This document shows, one piece after another, positions 1-6,635 of a stretch of DNA of 6,635 nt. This DNA is from a virus (taxonomy: Duplodnaviria > Heunggongvirae > Uroviricota > Caudoviricetes), in the IMG/VR virus record IMGVR_UViG_2574180227_000018. One strand, written 5' to 3'. A program made the translations under genes and the position numbers. A model generated the notes under the pieces. It was given only the letters and a program-made list of their open reading frames with translations, did no database searches and had not been told where the DNA came from. Each line of letters begins with the position of its first letter. Within the stretch, counting starts at the first letter, position 1.

Positions 1-1053
1 TTAAACTTCGTTTAACGCTTCCTGTATTCTTCGACCAATCCATTTCATGACCGGTACAGGCATTGAATTTCCAATGGCCTTATAACGATGAGCTGGAGAT
101 GAATTTTTCCATGGAATATCTGTATATCCATCGGGAAAACCTTGTAGCCTCTCGCATTCGGTTGGCGTCAACCTACGAACCCTTGAATATGGCGCTCTTT
201 CAACTATGAGCCCACCAGACATAGTCATGTCCTGGTTAGTTGTTCCGTTATAGCCAGCTATTACTGTGCCTGTTCGTTTTGGCAATGCTTCAAGGCAATA
301 TCGGTGCAATTTTCCTTCAATGCCTTGATCAAGAAGGGATTCGGATTTTTTCTTCTTTCCGTAATAGTTTTTATCGCCCTGCGACACAGGCGGGAACTCA
401 AATAATACCTTTCCGGGATCGAGCCTTTTTCCAGCACTTGCCACAACAAACACTCTTCTGCGAGCCTGGGCGACTCCGAAATATTGGGCATCAAGTACTC
501 GCCAGGCGACGATACGCGATGGTCCAGACACAACACCAGCGTTTGCCCATCTTTTCCTTGCTGGCTGTAATGCGCAACCTGCTCCGGCCAGCGCACCAAG
601 AAAATGACCGAATGCATTGTCATGGCTACTTAAAACTCCTGTGACGTTTTCCCATACGATTATTGAGGGGGATTTATTGAGCGATGCCCGAACGGTATCT
701 ATCTGATTCGCCAGTTCAACAAAAGACAGTGTTAACTGCCCCCGTGGATCTGAAAGGCCTTTTCGTTTGCCTGACATACTGAATGCCTGACACGGAGTTC
801 CACCTACAAGAATATCTGGTGCTTCAATAAGCCCATCCCTGATACGAGGCGCAAGCAAAGCCATATCACCAAGATTTGGTATATGGGGCCAGCGATATGA
901 AAGAAGTGTTGACGGGAAGTCCTCTATTTCACTGAACCATCTGGCTTTCCAGCCAAGATTGCTCCAGGCTACTGTCGCAGCTTCAATACCACTGCATACT
1001 GAACCATAGGTTAGTGACTTATCAGACTGAAAGTAATGTTTCTTGTTCCCCAC
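1..1053 (-). CDS. DNA (cytosine-5)-methyltransferase, phage-type, complete (GTG start at 1053, stop codon at 1-3)
   Basis: 350-aa ORF carrying C5-MTase motifs in canonical order: catalytic PCQ (GGTPCQAFS), ENV (VWENVTG), QxRxR (QARRRVFVV), and C-terminal RRLTPTECERLQGFPDGYT and AIGNSMPVPV. Gly-rich N-terminal motif I-like stretch (VCSGIEAA). SD-like AAGGAAA lies 7 nt upstream of the GTG. Short target-recognition region between motifs VIII and IX. Confidence 0.9.
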   Translation of the reverse strand: MGNKKHYFQSDKSLTYGSVCSGIEAATVAWSNLGWKARWFSEIEDFPSTLLSYRWPHIPNLGDMALLAPRIRDGLIEAPDILVGGTPCQAFSMSGKRKGLSDPRGQLTLSFVELANQIDTVRASLNKSPSIIVWENVTGVLSSHDNAFGHFLGALAGAGCALQPARKRWANAGVVSGPSRIVAWRVLDAQYFGVAQARRRVFVVASAGKRLDPGKVLFEFPPVSQGDKNYYGKKKKSESLLDQGIEGKLHRYCLEALPKRTGTVIAGYNGTTNQDMTMSGGLIVERAPYSRVRRLTPTECERLQGFPDGYTDIPWKNSSPAHRYKAIGNSMPVPVMKWIGRRIQEALNEV

Positions 1054-1207
1054 GGCAGGATTTCCTTGTGTATGTGGGGTGCTCTGTGGCGCTCTGAGAT
1101 GTGATTTGATTGAGGGTTTTGCAGCGCGGACATTTTACTTCCAGATAACTGAAACTGGCCCGTGCCAGTAGCTTATTGCAGTGTCGGCACCGTATGTTTC
1201 GATACAT
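1022..1207 (-). CDS. com: Com-like C4 zinc-finger protein (phage Mu Com family translational activator); overlaps the methyltransferase start by 32 nt
   Basis: Translation MYRNIRCRHCNKLLARASFSYLEVKCPRCKTLNQI...EHPTYTRKSC has two CxxC knuckles with Mu Com-like spacing and flanking residues (IRCxxCNKLL, CPRCK, EHPT), as I recall the Mu Com sequence. ATG at 1207 is preceded by AGGAGG with 10-nt spacing; the ORF track's longer form (to 1252) starts on a non-ATG codon with no SD. Its 3' end overlaps the downstream DNA-modification gene, as com does with mom. Confidence 0.7.
   Translation of the reverse strand: MYRNIRCRHCNKLLARASFSYLEVKCPRCKTLNQITSQSATEHPTYTRKSCRGEQETLLSV
1048..1079 (-). promoter_or_regulatory. 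mRNA hairpin sequestering the methyltransferase GTG start; SD lies in the loop
   Basis: Inverted repeat ccccac (1048-1053) and gtgggg (1074-1079). In the minus-strand mRNA the 6-bp GC-rich stem pairs CCCCAC with GUGGGG, which is the GTG start plus the next codon. The 20-nt loop contains the AAGGAAA SD. Confidence 0.35.
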
Positions 1208-1616
1208 GGCCGCATAACCTCCTGCTTTGTTGTTGATGCCTTTCTCATGCAATCGATCGACAAAAACGATCGATTCGGTTTGTTTAATTGATACAACAAA
1301 TAGATTGAAAAGTCATCAACAATGATTCAGGGCGGTGATTATTTACTTAAAGAAAACGAAGAGTTAGGTGGTGAAAACGATCATAAAATGATCATTTTAT
1401 TGACTTTTTATACAGTGAAGGTAGGATTGTGCGTATATGTAGTATGTTTCAAATCAATGGGATACTACATACATAAAGGGCGACCCAGATAGCGCGAACT
1501 ATTCTGGGCCGATTTAGACAATTTTGCATCAATGCTTTACTTCGAGCTCGTGGCGTATCCTATGATATTCCCCGGTCTCCTGTAAAGCAGAGATGCATAA
1601 AAAGGAGATCTTTATC
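1208..1616. promoter_or_regulatory. Divergent intergenic regulatory region containing four GATC (Dam) sites in two close pairs
   Basis: AT-rich 409-bp region between divergent com (minus) and the small + strand gene. GATC at 1255-1258 and 1268-1271 sit in repeated TCGATCGA and CGATCGAT contexts; GATC at 1379-1382 and 1390-1393 sit in the inverted repeat GATCATAAAATGATCA. TTGACT at 1400-1405 is a possible -35 for the + strand gene. Promoters not confidently placed. Confidence 0.3.
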
Positions 1617-1787
1617 ATGGATAAAGAGCCTGTTTACCCTGCCTGTAAGACTCCCTTACAGCTCATCTATCGCCGTTCTCGATCTCAAAATGGCAAGACA
1701 TACAAACCAAAAAATGCTTCCTGTTTCAGGATGCTGATATGCCCTGCCTGTTCTCCCCAGAGGGAAAATACACAAAACGTGCATTAA
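1617..1787 (+). CDS. Hypothetical small Cys-containing protein (56 aa from ATG 1617; ORF track gives 64 aa from 1593)
   Basis: AAAGGAG SD at 1601-1607, 9 nt before ATG 1617. Product MDKEPVYPACKTPLQLIYRRSRSQNGKTYKPKNASCFRMLICPACSP has a CPxC knuckle plus two more Cys and is basic. No family recognised. Confidence 0.45.
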   Translation: MDKEPVYPACKTPLQLIYRRSRSQNGKTYKPKNASCFRMLICPACSPQRENTQNVH

Positions 1788-1796
1788 CAAATTCCC

Positions 1797-1816
1797 CCGG
1801 CAGGGAAACCTGCCGG
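1797..1816. terminator. Hairpin between convergent stop codons (8-bp stem, GAAA loop)
   Basis: ccggcagg gaaa cctgccgg lies between the + gene stop (1785-1787) and the minus gene stop (1826-1828). Flanking U-tracts are weak on both strands. Confidence 0.4.
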
Positions 1817-1825
1817 TCGGTATTG

Positions 1826-2071
1826 TTACATCATAGTACCGTCAGTTCCGGGCTGAACCGGCTCTGGTTGCTCTACGGGTTGAGGAGCATTTTCCGTGCT
1901 GTTTTCAGCCGGAGAACGGCCAACCATTCGGGCCAGCACTTCATCAACATATGCGTCGATTTGTGCCTCAAAATCCTTGCGAACCTGCGCCTTCAGCACG
2001 CGGTTCACTTCTTCAGAATAAAGTGCCTGTTTGACAAGCTCTTCAGTAACCGTGCCTTTAATCTCTGGCAT
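1826..2071 (-). CDS. Hypothetical protein, 81 aa (helical N-terminal half, Pro/Glu/Gln-rich acidic tail)
   Basis: Strong SD AAGGAG 7 nt upstream of ATG 2071. Protein-like composition. Starts 35 bp downstream of the 60-aa gene, so likely co-transcribed with it. Confidence 0.6.
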   Translation of the reverse strand: MPEIKGTVTEELVKQALYSEEVNRVLKAQVRKDFEAQIDAYVDEVLARMVGRSPAENSTENAPQPVEQPEPVQPGTDGTMM

Positions 2072-2106
2072 GAATATTCTCCTTTTGCAGGTATATTGCC
2101 CCGTTA

Positions 2107-2289
2107 TCAGAGCGGGGTCGGGTCGTTTGGGGATGATGGTGCCTGTGCTGTTTTACTGAGCTTTTCGGCTGCTGCGTCATCAATTTTGCGGCGAATATAA
2201 TTTCTGATGACCTTATAACCGCCGCTCACCAGATATAACGCACTGACCACAGCGCAGAAATAAAGCAGCATTGTATGAACGAATGTCAT
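2107..2289 (-). CDS. Hypothetical small membrane protein, 60 aa (one N-terminal transmembrane helix, charged C-terminal tail)
   Basis: SD TAAGG upstream of ATG 2289. Hydrophobic segment LLYFCAVVSALYLVSGG followed by KVIRNYIRRK. Confidence 0.5.
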   Translation of the reverse strand: MTFVHTMLLYFCAVVSALYLVSGGYKVIRNYIRRKIDDAAAEKLSKTAQAPSSPNDPTPL

Positions 2290-2358
2290 ATAACCTTACC
2301 TTTGATATTGACTACATAATTCGTTATCGGGTAAAAACATGACGAAGTGACTGGTAAC

Positions 2359-2384
2359 TACTCCTTCGGGAGTATTTTTATTTT
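2359..2384 (+). terminator. Intrinsic terminator-like hairpin, + strand orientation (6-bp stem, UUCG tetraloop, T-tract)
   Basis: tactcc ttcg ggagta followed by tttttatttt. The U-tract follows the hairpin only on the + strand. Confidence 0.4.
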
Positions 2385-2403
2385 CCTTTATGGGTTAGGT
2401 AGC

Positions 2404-2440
2404 TCCCGCCAGCCATATCATGACCGGCGGGATTTTTTTT
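2404..2440 (+). terminator. Intrinsic terminator-like hairpin, + strand orientation (7-bp GC stem, T8 tract)
   Basis: tcccgcc, a 15-nt loop, ggcggga, then tttttttt (2433-2440). On the minus strand the hairpin sits just after the esterase stop but has no following U-tract. Confidence 0.4.
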
Positions 2441-4478
2441 ATTCTGTTACCGCTTTTTTCACTTCCACCACAATGCTGTCAATCAGCACCGGGTAAGTTG
2501 CATTTTTGGTGATATCCGTTACGCGGAGTTTGTCCACCGGGAAAGTTCCTACTGGTGACTGCGTCAGGGTAAACGCGGCACCATCCTGACCATCAATAAC
2601 CGGAATAACCTGAAGGCTGTTATTTCCTGCAAAACGGAAGGCCAGCGTATGCCATTCATTATCAAATACACCAAAGGTTCCCAGTTTCTGGTTATTTGTT
2701 GCCACTTTTGCATTGTGGTGCATCACATTCAGGTCTTTTGCGTCTGTCTGGATGTAGAACGATGCCAGCAGATTATTCCCTGCATCCCCTGTCAGGGTGA
2801 CACCCTGCGGCAGAGAGGAAACCGGCCAGTAAAGCGCCATGACATACTGGTTTGCCACCAGGTCGCCAGGTACTTTAAAACGACAACTGATTAAACCACC
2901 ATTTTTCAGCAGTTCAGCACCAGTACCGGCATCATGATCCAGATACCAGGATGATTTACCTGTTTCCTTGGTCAGTTTCATTGCCTTACCACCTGTGCCT
3001 CCTGCATCACTGATAATTTCAGCTTTACCGCCAGCCGGCTCCCAGCCCTGGGCTTTCAGATTTCCTTCTGACTCACTGACACGGTAAGACAGCAGTGTTG
3101 TGGTTACTGCTTCAGTTTCTGAAGGTGACGGCACTGGTGCTTCAGTTTCAGAAGATGGAACATCGGCTTTTACTGTGGTTCGCCCTGCATGAGTCAGAAC
3201 AGCCGTGGCCAGACGGTCGGAAATAATCCCACGACGTGCCCATGAACTGAAATGGCTGGCCCGGCCCGCAGATGTCCAGGTGGCGGCACTGTTACGCCAC
3301 GTTGAGCCGTAATAACCAATGGATTCAATATCCGGGTCTTCTGTCGGATTGTTGGTGGGTACATTCGCGCCATTTTCATCTGTCATTAATGGGACGAAAT
3401 GAATGTTTTTATCTGTTTTATTTTTGTAGCCGTCATAGATTGCCTGGTATGCCTGTTCGTTTTTCTGTTTCCAGAAATACGTGGTATCGCCACAAATCCA
3501 CGGAACGCCAGCAGCACTGCCACCGGTACACTGTTCCGCCTGTTCAGCCAAGTCTGCGCGGAATTTTTCCACCATCGCCAGAAACAGCGCGGAATGCTCC
3601 GTCGGCTTCGCATCAATATCAAACTCGCCCTGCATCCACACCACAGCAAGCAGGCGGTTTTTCGGGTTCTTCGCCAGTGCCGCTTTTGTCCGGCTGATTA
3701 AGTCCTTATACAGCGGCTTATCCACACCCCAGCGGGCTGAGTCCTCTGAAGCACCCGTGCTGTCACTGTACGTGCCGTCAGCACCCGCCGTGAATGCAGA
3801 ACCACCACGGCAGCAGGGAACCAGCAGAATCCCCGCATCTGCCGGAATAAACGGCAGCAGTTTTTTGGCAATGTGAAGCCCCTGACCCACGGTGCCATAT
3901 TGCCCTTTAGCCACATCCGCTTTCGGGTGATTTTTTCCACTCATATCCTGCACATCATGCAGACAGTGGTCGGCCAGAATGATGTCGTTATACTGACAGG
4001 CTTTACCTCCCGGCGTGACTGTACTGCGACGGGCTAACTGCATAATACGCGGTTCGGGGTGGTCATATGTCTCCGGCAGCGGCAGACCTTCACCGTAGGC
4101 CATCCCGTTTGACTGACCAGCAAGAACCACCACGTAATACCAGGAAGGGGAGCTGGAAGCAGTTTCATTTCCTGACGGACGGGTATGTGTTTCAGCATTA
4201 TCCCAGTCTGACGGTTCAGCAGTACCGGCAACATCAGCACTTAACGGAATGACAGCACCAATACCCGCACCGGTAATTTCCACGCTCGGATCACCGGATA
4301 CTGGCCTTACCCACAGGCAATCCCGTGTATTAAAACTGATGAGACAGTCAGCAAATGTCATTCCTCCTTTTGTTTCGGCCGGAGGAAAGGGAGCCTCAAG
4401 AAATGCCGCTGTACCACCGGAAACTTTAACAGTAAAGTTTCCGGGCATTGATGATAGTTGAACCCATTTGGACGTCAT
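2439..4478 (-). CDS. SGNH/SASA-family carbohydrate esterase (sialate O-acetylesterase-like, prophage NanS-p-like architecture), 679 aa, three domains
   Basis: GQSN catalytic-serine motif in VVVLAGQSNGMAYGEG and a downstream WMQGEFD block, typical of sialate O-acetylesterase/SASA domains. About 110 aa of N-terminal domain, a Ser/Pro/Glu/Thr linker with tandem SETEA repeats, and about 250 aa of C-terminal Gly/Thr-rich, probably beta-rich domain. No signal peptide. ATG at 4478. Confidence 0.8.
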   Translation of the reverse strand: MTSKWVQLSSMPGNFTVKVSGGTAAFLEAPFPPAETKGGMTFADCLISFNTRDCLWVRPVSGDPSVEITGAGIGAVIPLSADVAGTAEPSDWDNAETHTRPSGNETASSSPSWYYVVVLAGQSNGMAYGEGLPLPETYDHPEPRIMQLARRSTVTPGGKACQYNDIILADHCLHDVQDMSGKNHPKADVAKGQYGTVGQGLHIAKKLLPFIPADAGILLVPCCRGGSAFTAGADGTYSDSTGASEDSARWGVDKPLYKDLISRTKAALAKNPKNRLLAVVWMQGEFDIDAKPTEHSALFLAMVEKFRADLAEQAEQCTGGSAAGVPWICGDTTYFWKQKNEQAYQAIYDGYKNKTDKNIHFVPLMTDENGANVPTNNPTEDPDIESIGYYGSTWRNSAATWTSAGRASHFSSWARRGIISDRLATAVLTHAGRTTVKADVPSSETEAPVPSPSETEAVTTTLLSYRVSESEGNLKAQGWEPAGGKAEIISDAGGTGGKAMKLTKETGKSSWYLDHDAGTGAELLKNGGLISCRFKVPGDLVANQYVMALYWPVSSLPQGVTLTGDAGNNLLASFYIQTDAKDLNVMHHNAKVATNNQKLGTFGVFDNEWHTLAFRFAGNNSLQVIPVIDGQDGAAFTLTQSPVGTFPVDKLRVTDITKNATYPVLIDSIVVEVKKAVTE

Positions 4479-4577
4479 AATAATCAGCCTGTTCCTGAAT
4501 AAACAGAATTATCATATCCACAGACCGATAAACGCCATTTTGCGTTAATTCAGTAAAGGCCCAACAAAGAGAGCGTC

Positions 4578-5138
4578 TTATTTTTCCGAAACGCTCGCAG
4601 GATAATAACGATAAAGGGTTGAAAGGCCGATATCAAAAATAAGTGCCACCTGTCTTCGGCTGACACCCCCGGCCAGTAAACGCCCGACCTGCTCGTATTG
4701 TTCCTGCGTGAGACGACGGGGTCTGCCGCCGGTTCGTCCCCTTTCACGGGCAGCAGCAAGACCAGCCCGTGTCCGTTCGACAATCAATTCACGCTCCATT
4801 TCTGCCAGCGCACCCATTATGTGAAAAAAGAAGCGCCCCATGGGGGTTGACGTATCAATGTTGTCAGTAAGACTACGAAAATTTATCCCCTGTTGCTGTA
4901 ATTCATCTGTCAGCGCAACAAGGTGGCGCATACTGCGCCCCAGCCTGTCCAGTTTCCAGACCATCAGTGTGTCGCCGGGTTTTAGTTTCTTCAGTGCCCG
5001 CTTCAGTCCCGGCCGCTGCGTCGTTTTACCACTCATTTTGTCTTCAAAAATCTGCTCACATCCTGCACATTCCAGCGCATTTCTTTGTAAACCTGTGTTC
5101 TGGTCATTTGTTGATACGCGTATATAGCCAATCAGCAT
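4578..5138 (-). CDS. pin: Serine recombinase, DNA invertase of the Pin/Gin/Hin/Cin family, 186 aa
   Basis: N-terminus MLIGYIRVSTNDQNTGLQ carries the catalytic Ser motif. Resolvase-type catalytic domain (VWKLDRLGRS, MGALAEMERELI) and C-terminal HTH (GGVSRRQVALIFDIGLSTLYRY). SD AAGGAAGG 7 nt upstream of the ATG. Immediately adjacent to an inverted-repeat-bounded segment. Confidence 0.95.
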   Translation of the reverse strand: MLIGYIRVSTNDQNTGLQRNALECAGCEQIFEDKMSGKTTQRPGLKRALKKLKPGDTLMVWKLDRLGRSMRHLVALTDELQQQGINFRSLTDNIDTSTPMGRFFFHIMGALAEMERELIVERTRAGLAAARERGRTGGRPRRLTQEQYEQVGRLLAGGVSRRQVALIFDIGLSTLYRYYPASVSEK

Positions 5139-5192
5139 GTATTTACCTTCCTTAAAAAGAGGTGGAAATGCTTTTTAAAGCAGATATACGGC

Positions 5193-5218
5193 ATCCCTGA
5201 AACCTCGGTTTACGGGAA
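5193..5218. other. Left inversion crossover site (gix/pix-like: two 12-bp half-sites around central TC at 5205-5206)
   Basis: atccctgaaacc tc ggtttacgggaa is an imperfect palindrome resembling the gix/hix core (AAACC-TC-GGTTT). An identical 26-bp copy lies inverted at the right edge. Confidence 0.7.
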
Positions 5219-5226
5219 ACGGTAAA
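5201..5226. repeat. Inverted repeat, left arm (26 bp, perfect match to reverse complement of 6610-6635)
   Basis: aacctcggtttacgggaaacggtaaa compared by eye with the reverse complement of the last 26 bases of the window. Confidence 0.85.
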
Positions 5227-5587
5227 CAGGGCGGCGAATGCCCTGCCATCGAACGGAACGGCCGTTGCCGCGAACAGGCTGGCAAATGCCCACACAATTA
5301 ATGGTGTTCCCTTTGACGGAACGCAGGATATCAACATTACCTCCGGTATGACCGAAGCTGCTGCTGATAACAAATACGTTCGCAACGTTCAGCTTGGTGC
5401 CCAGAGTTACCATTCACCCGGAGGTAATGAAATGTCCTGGAGTTATGGCGCGCCTTCCGGTTGTATGCTTTCAGGTATTAACGTGCAGGAGACCGGGAGA
5501 AATTCAGCCGATAATATCGGAGGCGTTTATTACCGTCCGGTGCAGATATATATCGGTAATGCCTGGCGCACAGTTTCATCCGTCTGA
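5201..5587 (+). CDS. Silent alternative tail-fiber C-terminal cassette (Sv'-like); no start of its own in this orientation
   Basis: Open frame begins right after a TGA at 5198-5200 and runs through the recombination site to the stop at 5585-5587. The encoded NLGLRETVNRAANALPSNGTAVAANRLA...INGVPFDGTQDINITSGM... parallels the minus-strand fiber C-terminus (NLGLRETVNKAADALPSGGTAVAANRLA...INGVPFDGTRDINITSGM...), and the ends are similar (VYYRPVQIYIGNAW versus VYYRQIQYCINGNW). Confidence 0.7.
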   Translation, partial: NLGLRETVNRAANALPSNGTAVAANRLANAHTINGVPFDGTQDINITSGMTEAAADNKYVRNVQLGAQSYHSPGGNEMSWSYGAPSGCMLSGINVQETGRNSADNIGGVYYRPVQIYIGNAWRTVSSV

Positions 5588-5595
5588 TTAAAGGA

Positions 5596-5618
5596 AAAGG
5601 GTGCGATAAGCACCCTTT
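5596..5618. terminator. Bidirectional terminator hairpin between the convergent Sv' cassette and tfa (9-bp stem, 5-nt loop)
   Basis: aaagggtgc gataa gcacccttt. On the minus strand it directly follows the tfa stop and is followed by a UUUUCCUUU tract. Confidence 0.6.
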
Positions 5619-5621
5619 ACG

Positions 5622-6164
5622 TTATTCAGGCTTCTCCGGCCATTTAATGTCGTCAAATTCAGCTTTGTTTTTAATCGCTGGTAGTTCCATTTTTTTCACC
5701 TGACTGATGTATGCCATCCATCGGGTAAGTGCGGCTCTGTCTTCATCACTGATGGTGCCCAGCTGTAATTCTGTTCTCCAGTCATTAATTTTTTCATATG
5801 CCTGATTAAGATATGACTGGCGCATTGCTTCCAGTTTTCTTGCGTAGTTAACCGGAATACGGGAGATCACGCCATTATCAAACTTCCAGTTACCCGAAAT
5901 ATCAGCACCTTCAGGGAGTTCGTCGACTTCAACCACAGAGAACCCCGCAGGATACAGCGCCGAAGCGTCCTGTGATATTGAGCAGATAATGCCGCTGTCA
6001 GGTGTTATACAAAGTTTATATTTTTTTGTGAATAATGGCAGGGACTCGTAGAAATCCTTACCATCTTCACTCTGAAAATACTGTACATCATTACCATAGA
6101 GGGTATTTTCCGGGTAATATCGTTTAACATTAATCAGTTGCATAAACATCACCATGTGAATCAA
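5622..6164 (-). CDS. tfa: Tail fiber assembly protein (Tfa chaperone; P2 G / Mu U / lambda Tfa family); probable start at ATG 6143
   Basis: C-terminal region LGTISDEDRAALTRWMAYISQV...DIKWPEKPE resembles the conserved Tfa C-terminus (lambda Tfa ends ...PDIEWPAVP), with SEDGKDFYE and ADISGNWKFDNGVI blocks upstream. The ORF-track start at 6164 is a TTG without SD; ATG 6143 has a GGTGA SD. Confidence 0.85.
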   Translation of the reverse strand: MIHMVMFMQLINVKRYYPENTLYGNDVQYFQSEDGKDFYESLPLFTKKYKLCITPDSGIICSISQDASALYPAGFSVVEVDELPEGADISGNWKFDNGVISRIPVNYARKLEAMRQSYLNQAYEKINDWRTELQLGTISDEDRAALTRWMAYISQVKKMELPAIKNKAEFDDIKWPEKPE

Positions 6165-6263
6165 TGATAAAAACAGGAATAATACTATCGCTATATACGG
6201 ACAGGGGTTGTCTGAGATAACGCATATATCAGGCGCTGCCTGCCGTACGCCATGAGCCGTTAA

Positions 6264-6635
6264 TTAAATACTTGCAGCGGATACCCAATTCCCATTAATA
6301 CAATATTGTATCTGTCTGTAATAAACACGGTCATCACCACCACGCATTTCCCAGTCTCCGTCAGTCTTAAAACCGGTAATCACATTTCCTGATGACAGGG
6401 AGTAATTATATTCCAGTACGCCGCTTAATGCCTGCGCTCCCAGTCTTACCCCTGTAACATAACGCTGATTGGCCGTTGATTCCGGCATTCCTGACGTAAT
6501 GTTTATATCCCGCGTCCCGTCGAAAGGAACACCATTAATATTTCTTGGGGTGGCGAGTCTGTTTGCTGCCACGGCGGTTCCCCCCGATGGCAGGGCATCA
6601 GCGGCCTTATTTACCGTTTCCCGTAAACCGAGGTT
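6264..6635 (-). CDS. Tail fiber protein, C-terminal variable part (Sv-like), 5'-truncated by the window edge; currently expressed orientation
   Basis: The reading frame is open from the last base of the window through the inverted repeat to the stop at 6264-6266. The ORF-track GTG at 6572 is internal. Homologous to the + strand cassette. Confidence 0.8.
   Translation of the reverse strand, partial: NLGLRETVNKAADALPSGGTAVAANRLATPRNINGVPFDGTRDINITSGMPESTANQRYVTGVRLGAQALSGVLEYNYSLSSGNVITGFKTDGDWEMRGGDDRVYYRQIQYCINGNWVSAASI
6610..6635. repeat. Inverted repeat, right arm (26 bp), part of the right inversion site, which continues past the window edge
   Basis: Reverse complement equals 5201-5226. 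The predicted crossover dinucleotide is at 6630-6631, so the outer half-site lies beyond the window. Confidence 0.85.

Follow-up and report, generated by a model that had tools for sequence, protein, structure and literature searches.

Near one end of the stretch of phage DNA analysed here (6,635 nucleotides, hereafter the window) lie two short tail-fibre cassettes in inverted orientation. They raise the question of why two coding sequences should share a perfect 26-nucleotide repeat, remain alike for well over a hundred nucleotides beyond it, and then diverge in their C-terminal tips. A preliminary description of this DNA answered that the cassettes arose by duplication, that diversifying selection then acted on the distal tips, and that the extended homology provides a substrate for gene conversion. 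We favor a different answer, to which we assign a probability of roughly 0.85: the stretch of about 150 bp is the proximal arm, a conserved shaft module, of one of two alternative fibre cassettes in a Gin-type switch, and at the level of the prophage population it serves as a junction at which tips are swapped.

The locus is a Gin-type invertible tail-fibre segment in an Sp18-like, Mu-like E. coli prophage. On the minus strand the window gives the right end of this prophage, in the order Sv2 (6635→6264), tfa (6143→5622), Sv1 (5201→5587, on the opposite strand) and invertase (5138→4578); past the invertase come genes for a 679-aa DUF6645/SASA-esterase protein, for DUF1378 and DUF826 proteins, for a Com zinc-ribbon protein and for a C5 DNA methylase. 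The constant N-terminus of the fibre, Sc (194 aa), is encoded just beyond the window. By the convention used for Mu and P1 the invertible segment corresponds to window positions 5206–6630, and within its 1.4 kb it holds the two cassettes, Sv1 and Sv2 (123–128 aa), and one tfa. The features, in window coordinates, are as follows.

4578–5138, minus strand: serine DNA invertase of the Gin/Cin/Pin/Hin family (Pfam Resolvase, 1.4e-51; HTH_7, 1.7e-14)
5193–5218: invertase-proximal 26-bp gix-like crossover site, ATCCCTGAAACC-TC-GGTTTACGGGAA, with the central dinucleotide at 5205–5206
5201–5226: left copy of the 26-nt perfect inverted repeat; it takes in the final 4 nt of the outer half-site, then TC and the inner half-site, and ends in 8 nt of coding sequence
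5227–5362, plus strand: left arm, codons 10–54 of Sv1, conserved shaft module (74% DNA identity to the right arm)
5363–5587, plus strand: Sv1 tip with its stop codon, a C-terminal domain of the P2 gpH type; silent in the orientation of the window
5591–5623: hairpin lying between the stop codons of Sv1 and tfa, which are convergent; an inverted repeat and likely two-way terminator
5622–6143, minus strand: tail-fibre assembly (chaperone) gene tfa, sole copy (Pfam Caudo_TAP, 3e-19; PHROG 136, 1e-54)
6144–6263, minus strand: noncoding gap of 120 nt from the Sv2 stop to the tfa start, from the open reading frame list
6264–6473, minus strand: Sv2 tip with its stop codon, a C-terminal domain of the Mu S type (Tfa-binding, receptor-binding); expressed in the orientation of the window
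6474–6609, minus strand: right arm, codons 10–54 of Sv2, from the ungapped comparison and relatives
6610–6635: right copy of the 26-nt perfect inverted repeat, pairing with 5201–5226

The fibre gene is split: its constant 5′ part lies beyond the segment, its alternative 3′ parts lie within, and the reading frame runs on through the crossover site. Specifically, in E. coli SW070917 (locus L001) an annotated CDS of 322 aa joins Sc and Sv1 in frame, and PHROG 1833, a tail-fibre profile of 322 positions, covers the whole Sc–Sv1 protein (E = 1e-130). Likewise, the annotated fibre CDSs of loci L005–L009 and L011–L013 cross the crossover site into the tfa-side cassette. Pfam returned no family for either cassette, for the arms alone or for the full fibre, even at E ≤ 5; the expected match to its “phage tail fibre repeat” family was absent, so no Pfam assignment is made. 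Against species-representative genomes, the Sc protein found one distant locus only (Kluyvera, 41% over 82 aa), too distant for comparisons of the arms, which were done on E. coli genomes.

The invertase begins with MLIGYIRVSTNDQ and has a resolvase catalytic domain with the serine in a YxRVST motif and a C-terminal HTH; it matches PHROG 125 (“DNA invertase,” 6e-95) and over 181 aa shares 76% identity with Mu Gin (E = 6e-109). The crossover site beside it is in register with the Mu site TTATCCAAAACC-TC-GGTTTACAGGAA and with Mu's annotated G-segment boundary. The Sc-proximal site begins at 6618 and is centred on 6630–6631, and the window end leaves 18 of its 26 bp (6618–6635); in L001, where it is complete, it reads TTATCGATAACC-TC-GGTTTACGGGAA. 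The two sites, each made of imperfect dyad half-sites, are in inverted orientation and have an identical central TC. The 26-bp core of the preliminary description is indeed a perfect run, but it is not the recombination site, which is offset to 5193–5218. A search of the window for further crossover sites with the 14-nt AAACCTCGGTTTAC at up to three mismatches found none, yielding the true site plus one three-mismatch match at 3–16. A core-like AACACCGGTTTAC within the invertase gene of some relatives, where it encodes NTGLQ, was put down to a chance resemblance within the coding sequence. Across its first 150 nt the invertase gene has a mean column identity of 86% with Mu gin and P1 cin, a non-specific figure, as the catalytic core is encoded there; P1's annotated enhancer falls within that same stretch, and the signal of any Fis-dependent enhancer in the window's gene would be inseparable from coding constraint.

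Inversion at these sites can be seen by comparing genomes. L001 carries the window's prophage with exactly 5201–6635 flipped: window positions 1–5200 match it in reverse, and 5201–6635 match it forward at 100%. The orientation breakpoint thus falls exactly at 5201, where the perfect repeat stops. In many relatives the base at 5204 (core position 4), just outside the TC, is C on the invertase side and G or A on the Sc side, and it keeps with its flank whichever cassette adjoins it, as comparison of L005 and L006 with L010, in which the segment is flipped relative to both, makes clear. Because this base stays with the flank, the point of exchange lies to its right, as expected for cleavage at the TC at 5205–5206. 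The segment occurs in both orientations in the population; among 5,426 complete E. coli genomes, the junction of the invertase with the P2H-type cassette is present in 28 and that with the Mu-S-type cassette in 43, and O157:H7 strains appear in both lists.

The similarity between the inverted arms was measured by ungapped comparison of 5201–5590 on the plus strand with the reverse complement of 6261–6635. The perfect run is exactly 26 nt (5201–5226/6635–6610) and is followed by similarity that stays in register. Identity is 78.7% over 5201–5350 (against 6486–6635), 78.2% over 5201–5356, and 74.2% over 5227–5350, when the core is left out. An independent repeat search placed the arms at 5201–5283/6553–6635 and 5297–5356/6480–6539, each at 83%. 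In steps of 30 nt, identity is 0.83 at 5321–5350, 0.53 at 5351–5380 and about 0.3 beyond 5396; homology ends at ∼5356–5362, that is, ∼130–136 nt past the core or ∼156–162 nt with it. The similarity noted in the preliminary description is therefore confirmed, and the extension of about 150 bp beyond the core that had been proposed is somewhat too long. Past the core the longest exact runs in the window's pair are 14, 14 and 8 nt, and the best-conserved blocks of arm DNA, at 5238–5251 and 5297–5310, are short and discrete. In 10,000 shuffles of the partner over 5227–5356 the mean identity was 25.7% and the maximum 40.8%, compared with 73.8% observed, which rules out chance, and the two cassettes align by BLASTP with 50% identity (E = 7e-38).

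The pattern of substitution suggests what has kept the arms alike. For arm codons 10–54 the Nei–Gojobori method gives a pS of 0.63, a dS of ∼1.35, a dN of 0.16 and an ω of 0.12, and identity at codon positions 1, 2 and 3 is 84%, 87% and 46%. We judge the arms to be old because dS is ∼1.35, synonymous sites are near saturation and third positions agree at only 46%; the arm past the core represents an ancient divergence in which the two copies stayed alike through purifying selection on the protein, and is neither young nor homogenised. The 26-nt core shows zero differences between the copies; it is held identical at the DNA level, and it carries the inner half of the crossover site. Each cassette opens with the same shaft module of ∼52 aa, with the motif INGVxFDGxxDIxI (…ANRLAxxxxINGVPFDGTxDINITSGM…). 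The blocks quoted in the preliminary description are all present, namely INGVPFDGT(Q/R)DINITSGM, LGAQ, VYYR and N-W (G-N-A-W in Sv1, G-N-W in Sv2). The shaft motif occurs twice in the arms of the P1 C segment, and matches to the arm are found in fibres of Aeromonas T4-like phages and in many unrelated fibre PHROGs. The LGAQ, VYYR and N-W motifs are family-wide in the C-terminal domain that follows and are found also in Mu S and S′.

Beyond the arms, the cassettes remain homologous along their whole length while their tips are 29% identical (E = 7e-07, still detectably homologous), in agreement with the earlier picture of a conserved proximal part and diverged distal tips. The Sv2 tip is 56% identical to the C-terminus of Mu S (PDB 5YVQ_A residues 436–503, E = 5.5e-22); the Sv1 tip shares 56% identity with the C-terminus of gpH from the P2-like phage fiAA91-ss and matches PDB 9CUY, a “short tail fiber” (E = 8e-16). 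Because tips share 56% identity with those of other lineages and 29% with each other, acquisition of modules by exchange accounts for them better than divergence in place, and the comparison fits an origin of the tip modules by exchange, not by local duplication followed by divergence. Ten orthologous P2H-type tips give a pooled dS of 0.84, dN of 0.10 and ω of 0.12, values that point to purifying selection, and seven Mu-S-type tips differ from one another by only 1–3 nt in 210. A pooled ω of 1.69 for the Mu-S tips was dismissed as a sign of positive selection, as it stems from only 1–3 substitutions per pair. The comparison of the tip paralogues is saturated at synonymous sites (pS 0.74). Pairwise averages over orthologues, which could miss a few selected sites, gave no evidence of diversifying selection on the tips. 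In 12/12 genomes (the window and 11 relatives) the reading frame of each cassette runs uninterrupted to its stop codon.

It is informative to examine the arms across these relatives, a panel of 11 E. coli loci (22 cassettes, six tip types), alike in layout, that is small and not phylogenetically independent. Blocks of arm haplotype (e.g., the LANAHT and LATPRN alleles at nt 78–96) are reshuffled against tip type and position, and the nearest neighbor of an arm often belongs to a different tip type. Identity is 95% between the window's Sv2 arm and the arm of the P2H cassette in L005, and 92% between the window's Sv1 arm and that of the T4 cassette in L011. Over arm nt 27–150 (124 nt) the four-gamete test fails in 182 of 378 informative site pairs, with an Rmin of 12, although some incompatibilities at such divergence could be recurrent mutation. 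A PHI-like distance test for recombination gave p = 0.23 and is powerless here, incompatibility being pervasive at all distances within the 124 nt, and the reading of the arm as a junction relies on Rmin, the haplotype blocks and the discordance of arm and tip. Mu-S tips that differ by 1–3 nt carry arms that differ by 10–31 nt, with the last arm difference at nt 92–162, and the P2H cassettes of the window and L011 have a dS of 0.02 in the tip and 0.53 in the arm. A profile of the modules against relatives gives 65–75% identity for Sc, 86–93% for the arm and 99–100% for the Mu-S tip, the gap and the N-domain of tfa; on the other side of the profile, gin is 98% identical and the arm ∼74%. Because nearly identical tips ride on diverged arms, haplotypes are reassorted and the identities of the modules contrast, the arm is a junction between modules of different histories and acts as a recombination joint at the population level.

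The same panel bears on whether the two arms of one genome evolve in concert. Mean arm identity is 0.819 within genomes and 0.805 between them (permutation p = 0.25), and within-genome values in relatives span 0.72–0.96. At the upper end, the arms of L010 are 96% alike with a perfect run of 98 nt, and its P2H cassette bears an arm otherwise found on Mu-S cassettes; the arms of L005 are 93% alike. The near-identity in L010 probably reflects local conversion. Efficient RecA-dependent exchange in E. coli requires roughly 23–27 bp or more of identity, and the exact runs past the core in the window (≤14 nt) are therefore too short for it.

How else might the two cassettes have come to share their arms? 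The duplication proposed at the outset would have been an inverted one in place, with the tips diverging under diversifying selection while gene conversion kept the proximal parts alike. Homology over the full length of the cassettes would agree with this, as would the close arms of L005 and those of L010, which look like a product of local conversion; furthermore, the P1 arms, essentially perfect over 562 nt, demonstrate that homogenised arms exist in this class. In the present genome, however, a dS of 1.35 with third positions at 46% and the lack of any exact run above 14 nt past the core speak against such a process, as do the lack of a difference between within-genome and between-genome arm identity, the greater closeness of each tip to other lineages than to its partner, and orthologous tips that either have an ω of 0.12 or are near-invariant. 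We consider this explanation unlikely and, for this genome, largely refuted. Duplication followed by divergence is not supported by the saturated arms (pS 0.63) and the affinities of the tips, nor is diversifying selection by the constraint on the P2H-type tips, the near-invariance of the Mu-S tips and a paralogue comparison that is saturated. The role of the homology as a substrate for conversion survives in part, in that recombination in the population is evident from Rmin and from L010, but ongoing conversion in this genome is not borne out by the short exact runs or by the concerted evolution test.

It is also worth considering that the arms might be conserved as DNA, with accessory sites bound by the invertase or by a host protein (e.g., Fis), and so belong to an extended recombination site. 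They do directly adjoin the crossover sites, and their best-conserved blocks are short and discrete, as such sites might be; yet conservation tracks codons (84–87% at positions 1–2, 46% at position 3), Mu inverts with 34-bp repeats alone and no arms, partner-arm identity ranges from 72% to 96% in relatives that are found in both orientations, and the annotated enhancer of P1 lies inside the invertase gene and not in the arms. We therefore regard a role of this kind as very improbable. Less probable again is that the similarity is an artefact of chance or composition, or that one intact gene is paired with a decaying pseudogene copy. In most relatives RefSeq labels the silent cassette a pseudogene, an incomplete “phage tail protein,” and Sv1 is without a tfa of its own; nonetheless, shuffling gives at most 41% identity where 74% is observed, the cassettes are open in every one of the 12 genomes, the P2H-type cassettes evolve with an ω of 0.12, and either cassette is fused to Sc in different genomes.

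In the reading that we prefer, a shaft module serving as a junction, the steps are as follows. The serine invertase recombines the two inverted 26-bp gix-like sites at the central TC. In the state seen in the window this joins Sc to Sv2, with its Mu S-type tip; in the other it joins Sc to Sv1, with its P2 gpH-type tip. One fibre thereby receives two alternative receptor-binding tips, and a changed host range, as in Mu, may follow; we infer this change because the tips belong to different types. Both arms stay alike through constraint on the protein, with the outer 26 nt alone held identical as DNA. Across the prophage population, homologous recombination at the arm and core re-pairs tips with different backbones, and the histories of arm haplotypes and tips are discordant because the arm is the junction for this re-pairing. 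The anatomy, the inversion, the regime of selection and the mosaicism are read directly from the comparisons above, and the exchanges themselves would presumably be mediated by RecA or by a phage recombinase.

The chaperone gene of this segment deserves separate attention. The tfa product matches PDB 5YVQ_B (Mu U, 2.3e-17) and is 32% identical to Mu U and likewise to P2-type G. The two fibre ends do not each have a U/U′-type chaperone gene of their own; a single tfa is present, co-oriented with Sv2, and two cassettes with one tfa are found in all 12 genomes. Only 34 nt lie between the Sv1 stop and the tfa stop, and they form a hairpin with a ΔG of −20.8 kcal/mol on the plus strand and −18.9 on the minus strand (z about −3), which is likely to act as a two-way terminator. 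In the Sv1-ON state, common in the E. coli census, the fibre gene and the sole tfa are on opposite strands. The variants of tfa do not follow the adjacent tip type. Mu U and P2-type G are 70% identical, as against 29% for their tip types (here Sv2 and Sv1), and because the chaperones are so much more alike than the tips, one chaperone may serve both. The 120-nt gap is 98–100% conserved along with the Mu-S tip module in L002, L005, L006 and L010. A scan of 5100–6635 for σ70-like promoters, a class that does not include Mu-type late promoters, gave two matches, fewer than the 3.9 that shuffles led one to expect, and the gap contained none.

If the Sv1-ON state is functional, tfa might be expressed whatever the orientation, perhaps from the conserved 120-nt gap; the P2H-type tip might fold without a cis-encoded chaperone; or Tfa proteins might be borrowed from co-resident prophages. 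Were any of these true, the switch would toggle chaperone coupling and not just two tips. One can imagine, then, a minimal, asymmetric G segment that toggles between chaperone-coupled and chaperone-uncoupled fibres, with an arm that was possibly selected as a “universal adaptor” for any tip and backbone; we find this extension possible but, on balance, doubtful.

Comparison with known systems helps to place the locus. It shares with the Mu G segment (Gin; S/U and S′/U′) a nearly identical crossover site, with 1 nt different in the inner half-site, that lies inside the fibre gene at the conserved peptide N-L-G-L-(Q/R)-E-T-V-N, as well as a constant fibre N-terminus outside the segment with alternative C-termini inside. 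The order is also the same: fibre, invertible segment and invertase, after which the prophage ends with com and a gene for DNA modification. The Sv2 tip is homologous to the C-terminus of Mu S, and tfa to Mu U. In contrast, the Mu repeats are 34 bp long and similarity collapses directly beyond them, with no arms of 130 nt; the Mu segment is ∼3 kb with variable parts of 320–336 aa and two chaperone genes, whereas this one is 1.4 kb with one tfa; here the invertase is separated from com by small DUF genes and the gene for a 679-aa DUF6645/SASA protein; and a C5 cytosine methylase takes the place of Mom. With the P1 C segment (Cin) the locus has in common inverted repeats that reach far into the variable cassettes past the crossover site, arms that encode the INGVxFDG shaft motif, and an adjacent invertase gene, for which the P1 annotation gives an internal enhancer. 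It differs in that the P1 arms, measured from P1's GenBank record, are perfect over 562 nt and 98.7% identical over 620 nt, and P1 has both U and U′; the long homogenised arms of the P1 type are absent here, where 26 perfect nucleotides give way to ∼136 nt at 74% with saturated synonymous sites (dS 1.35). The locus thus stands between Mu and P1 in the length of its arms, which, unlike those of P1, are not homogenised.

Sp18 of O157:H7 Sakai and related Mu-like prophages of STEC belong to the same family by DNA similarity: O157:H7 genomes match the junction queries at 87–94%. Sp18, an O157 Mu-like prophage, has been described as carrying an invertible host-specificity region with genes distinct from those of Mu (PMC2669165). 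The window differs from these relatives in its divergent Sc (65–75% to those sampled) and in its pairing of arm to tip, and in the literature searched we found no description of the arm structure or of the single tfa. More broadly, the locus resembles other cases of mosaic fibre evolution (P2 H, Mu S, P1 S and p15B Min), in that P2-type and Mu-type tips occur on one Mu-like backbone and conserved blocks serve as junctions for horizontal exchange; the classic papers on this subject are reportedly those of Haggård-Ljungquist in 1992 and of Sandmeier, Iida and Arber in 1992. The Min system of p15B has six crossover sites, and there are two here.

For basic biology these findings carry little weight, since invertible fibre switches and fibre mosaicism are textbook matter and the Sp18-type region had already been noted. 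Nonetheless, the locus adds a Gin-type fibre switch member within the Sp18-like prophage family. Our reading would also explain the “pseudogene” calls of annotation pipelines, the silent cassette being probably a functional alternative cassette comparable to an exon. The layout with a single tfa poses a modest, testable question about the specificity and expression of chaperones in such switches. The discordance of arm and tip makes the locus a clean and compact case in which a conserved shaft module works as a recombination joint, and a joint of this kind may help in the design of chimeric fibres for Mu-like or P2-like phages and for tailocins.

The prophage backbone has a different history from what its invertible segment carries. 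The elements on which this and the following points rest are, in window coordinates unless another locus is named:

L001 (the same prophage, segment flipped) 6419-7000, just outside the window's right edge: Sc, the constant fibre part
5588-6263: region with the lone tail-fibre assembly gene (tfa) shared by both fibre cassettes, the same in L001, L002 and L005-L013
6144-6263, minus strand: 120-nt non-coding gap from the stop of Sv2, the cassette with the Mu S-type (Mu-S) tip, to the start of tfa
5204 and its partner just past 6635: crossover-site base next to the central TC, mismatched between the two sites in L005, L006 and L009-L013 (core position 4)

Specifically, the Sc of this prophage has only 65-75% DNA identity to that of its relatives, whereas the invertase is 98% identical in eight of 10 relatives and the module of Mu-S tip and tfa is 99-100% identical in four of the 10; separate histories therefore follow. 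The 120-nt gap, which is conserved at 98-100% jointly with the Mu-S tip module, is far longer than the equivalent 2 nt in Mu and also exceeds the 51-79 nt found in relatives with other tip types. No σ70-like matches lie inside it.

While Mu and P1 have two assembly genes, U and U', one tfa is common to the two alternative fibre cassettes in this prophage and in its relatives (L001, L002, L005-L013). It shares a strand with Sv2 only, with the effect that when Sv1, the cassette with the P2 gpH-type (P2H) tip, is the one switched on, tfa and the fibre gene are on opposite strands; this orientation is frequent. Across the window and the same relatives, sequence variants of tfa do not follow the type of tip next to them.

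In many relatives (L005, L006, L009-L013) the base adjoining the central TC differs between the two crossover sites, being C at the invertase side and G or A at the Sc side. A 1-bp mismatch of this kind has been proposed as a possible block to inversion in the SfMu paper (PMC4406740). Here it occurs whether the cassette adjoining the Sc side is of Mu-S or of P2H type, as a comparison of L005 and L006 with L010, which are related but distinct prophages, shows; the mismatch therefore appears to be tolerated.

To the left of the invertase lie the following genes:

2439-4478, minus strand: 679-aa protein with a SASA domain (sialate O-acetylesterase-type) and a C-terminal DUF6645
1826-2289, minus strand: small genes encoding DUF826 and DUF1378 proteins, in the interval from the esterase-like gene to com
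1593-1787, plus strand: 64-aa ORF with paired CxxC-like cysteines (…YPACKTP…ICPACSP…)
1022-1252, minus strand: Mu-type Com zinc-ribbon gene
1-1053, minus strand: C5 cytosine DNA methylase gene

The SASA/DUF6645 gene, directly downstream of the invertase, keeps this position in all relatives but is absent from Mu, whose gin-com interval likewise has no counterpart of the DUF826 and DUF1378 genes. Its product, listed in PHROG 143 under 'unknown function', may be an esterase that is associated with the tail or modifies surface glycans. The 64-aa ORF runs opposite to its neighbours, and in L001 and L002 the annotation gives the matching region as a hypothetical gene with a frameshift. Finally, com overlaps the start of the methylase gene by 32 nt in the place where Mu has com-mom. 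Since com is followed by a true mom gene in the related prophage L002, one DNA-modification enzyme has been swapped for another behind one and the same translational-regulator gene.
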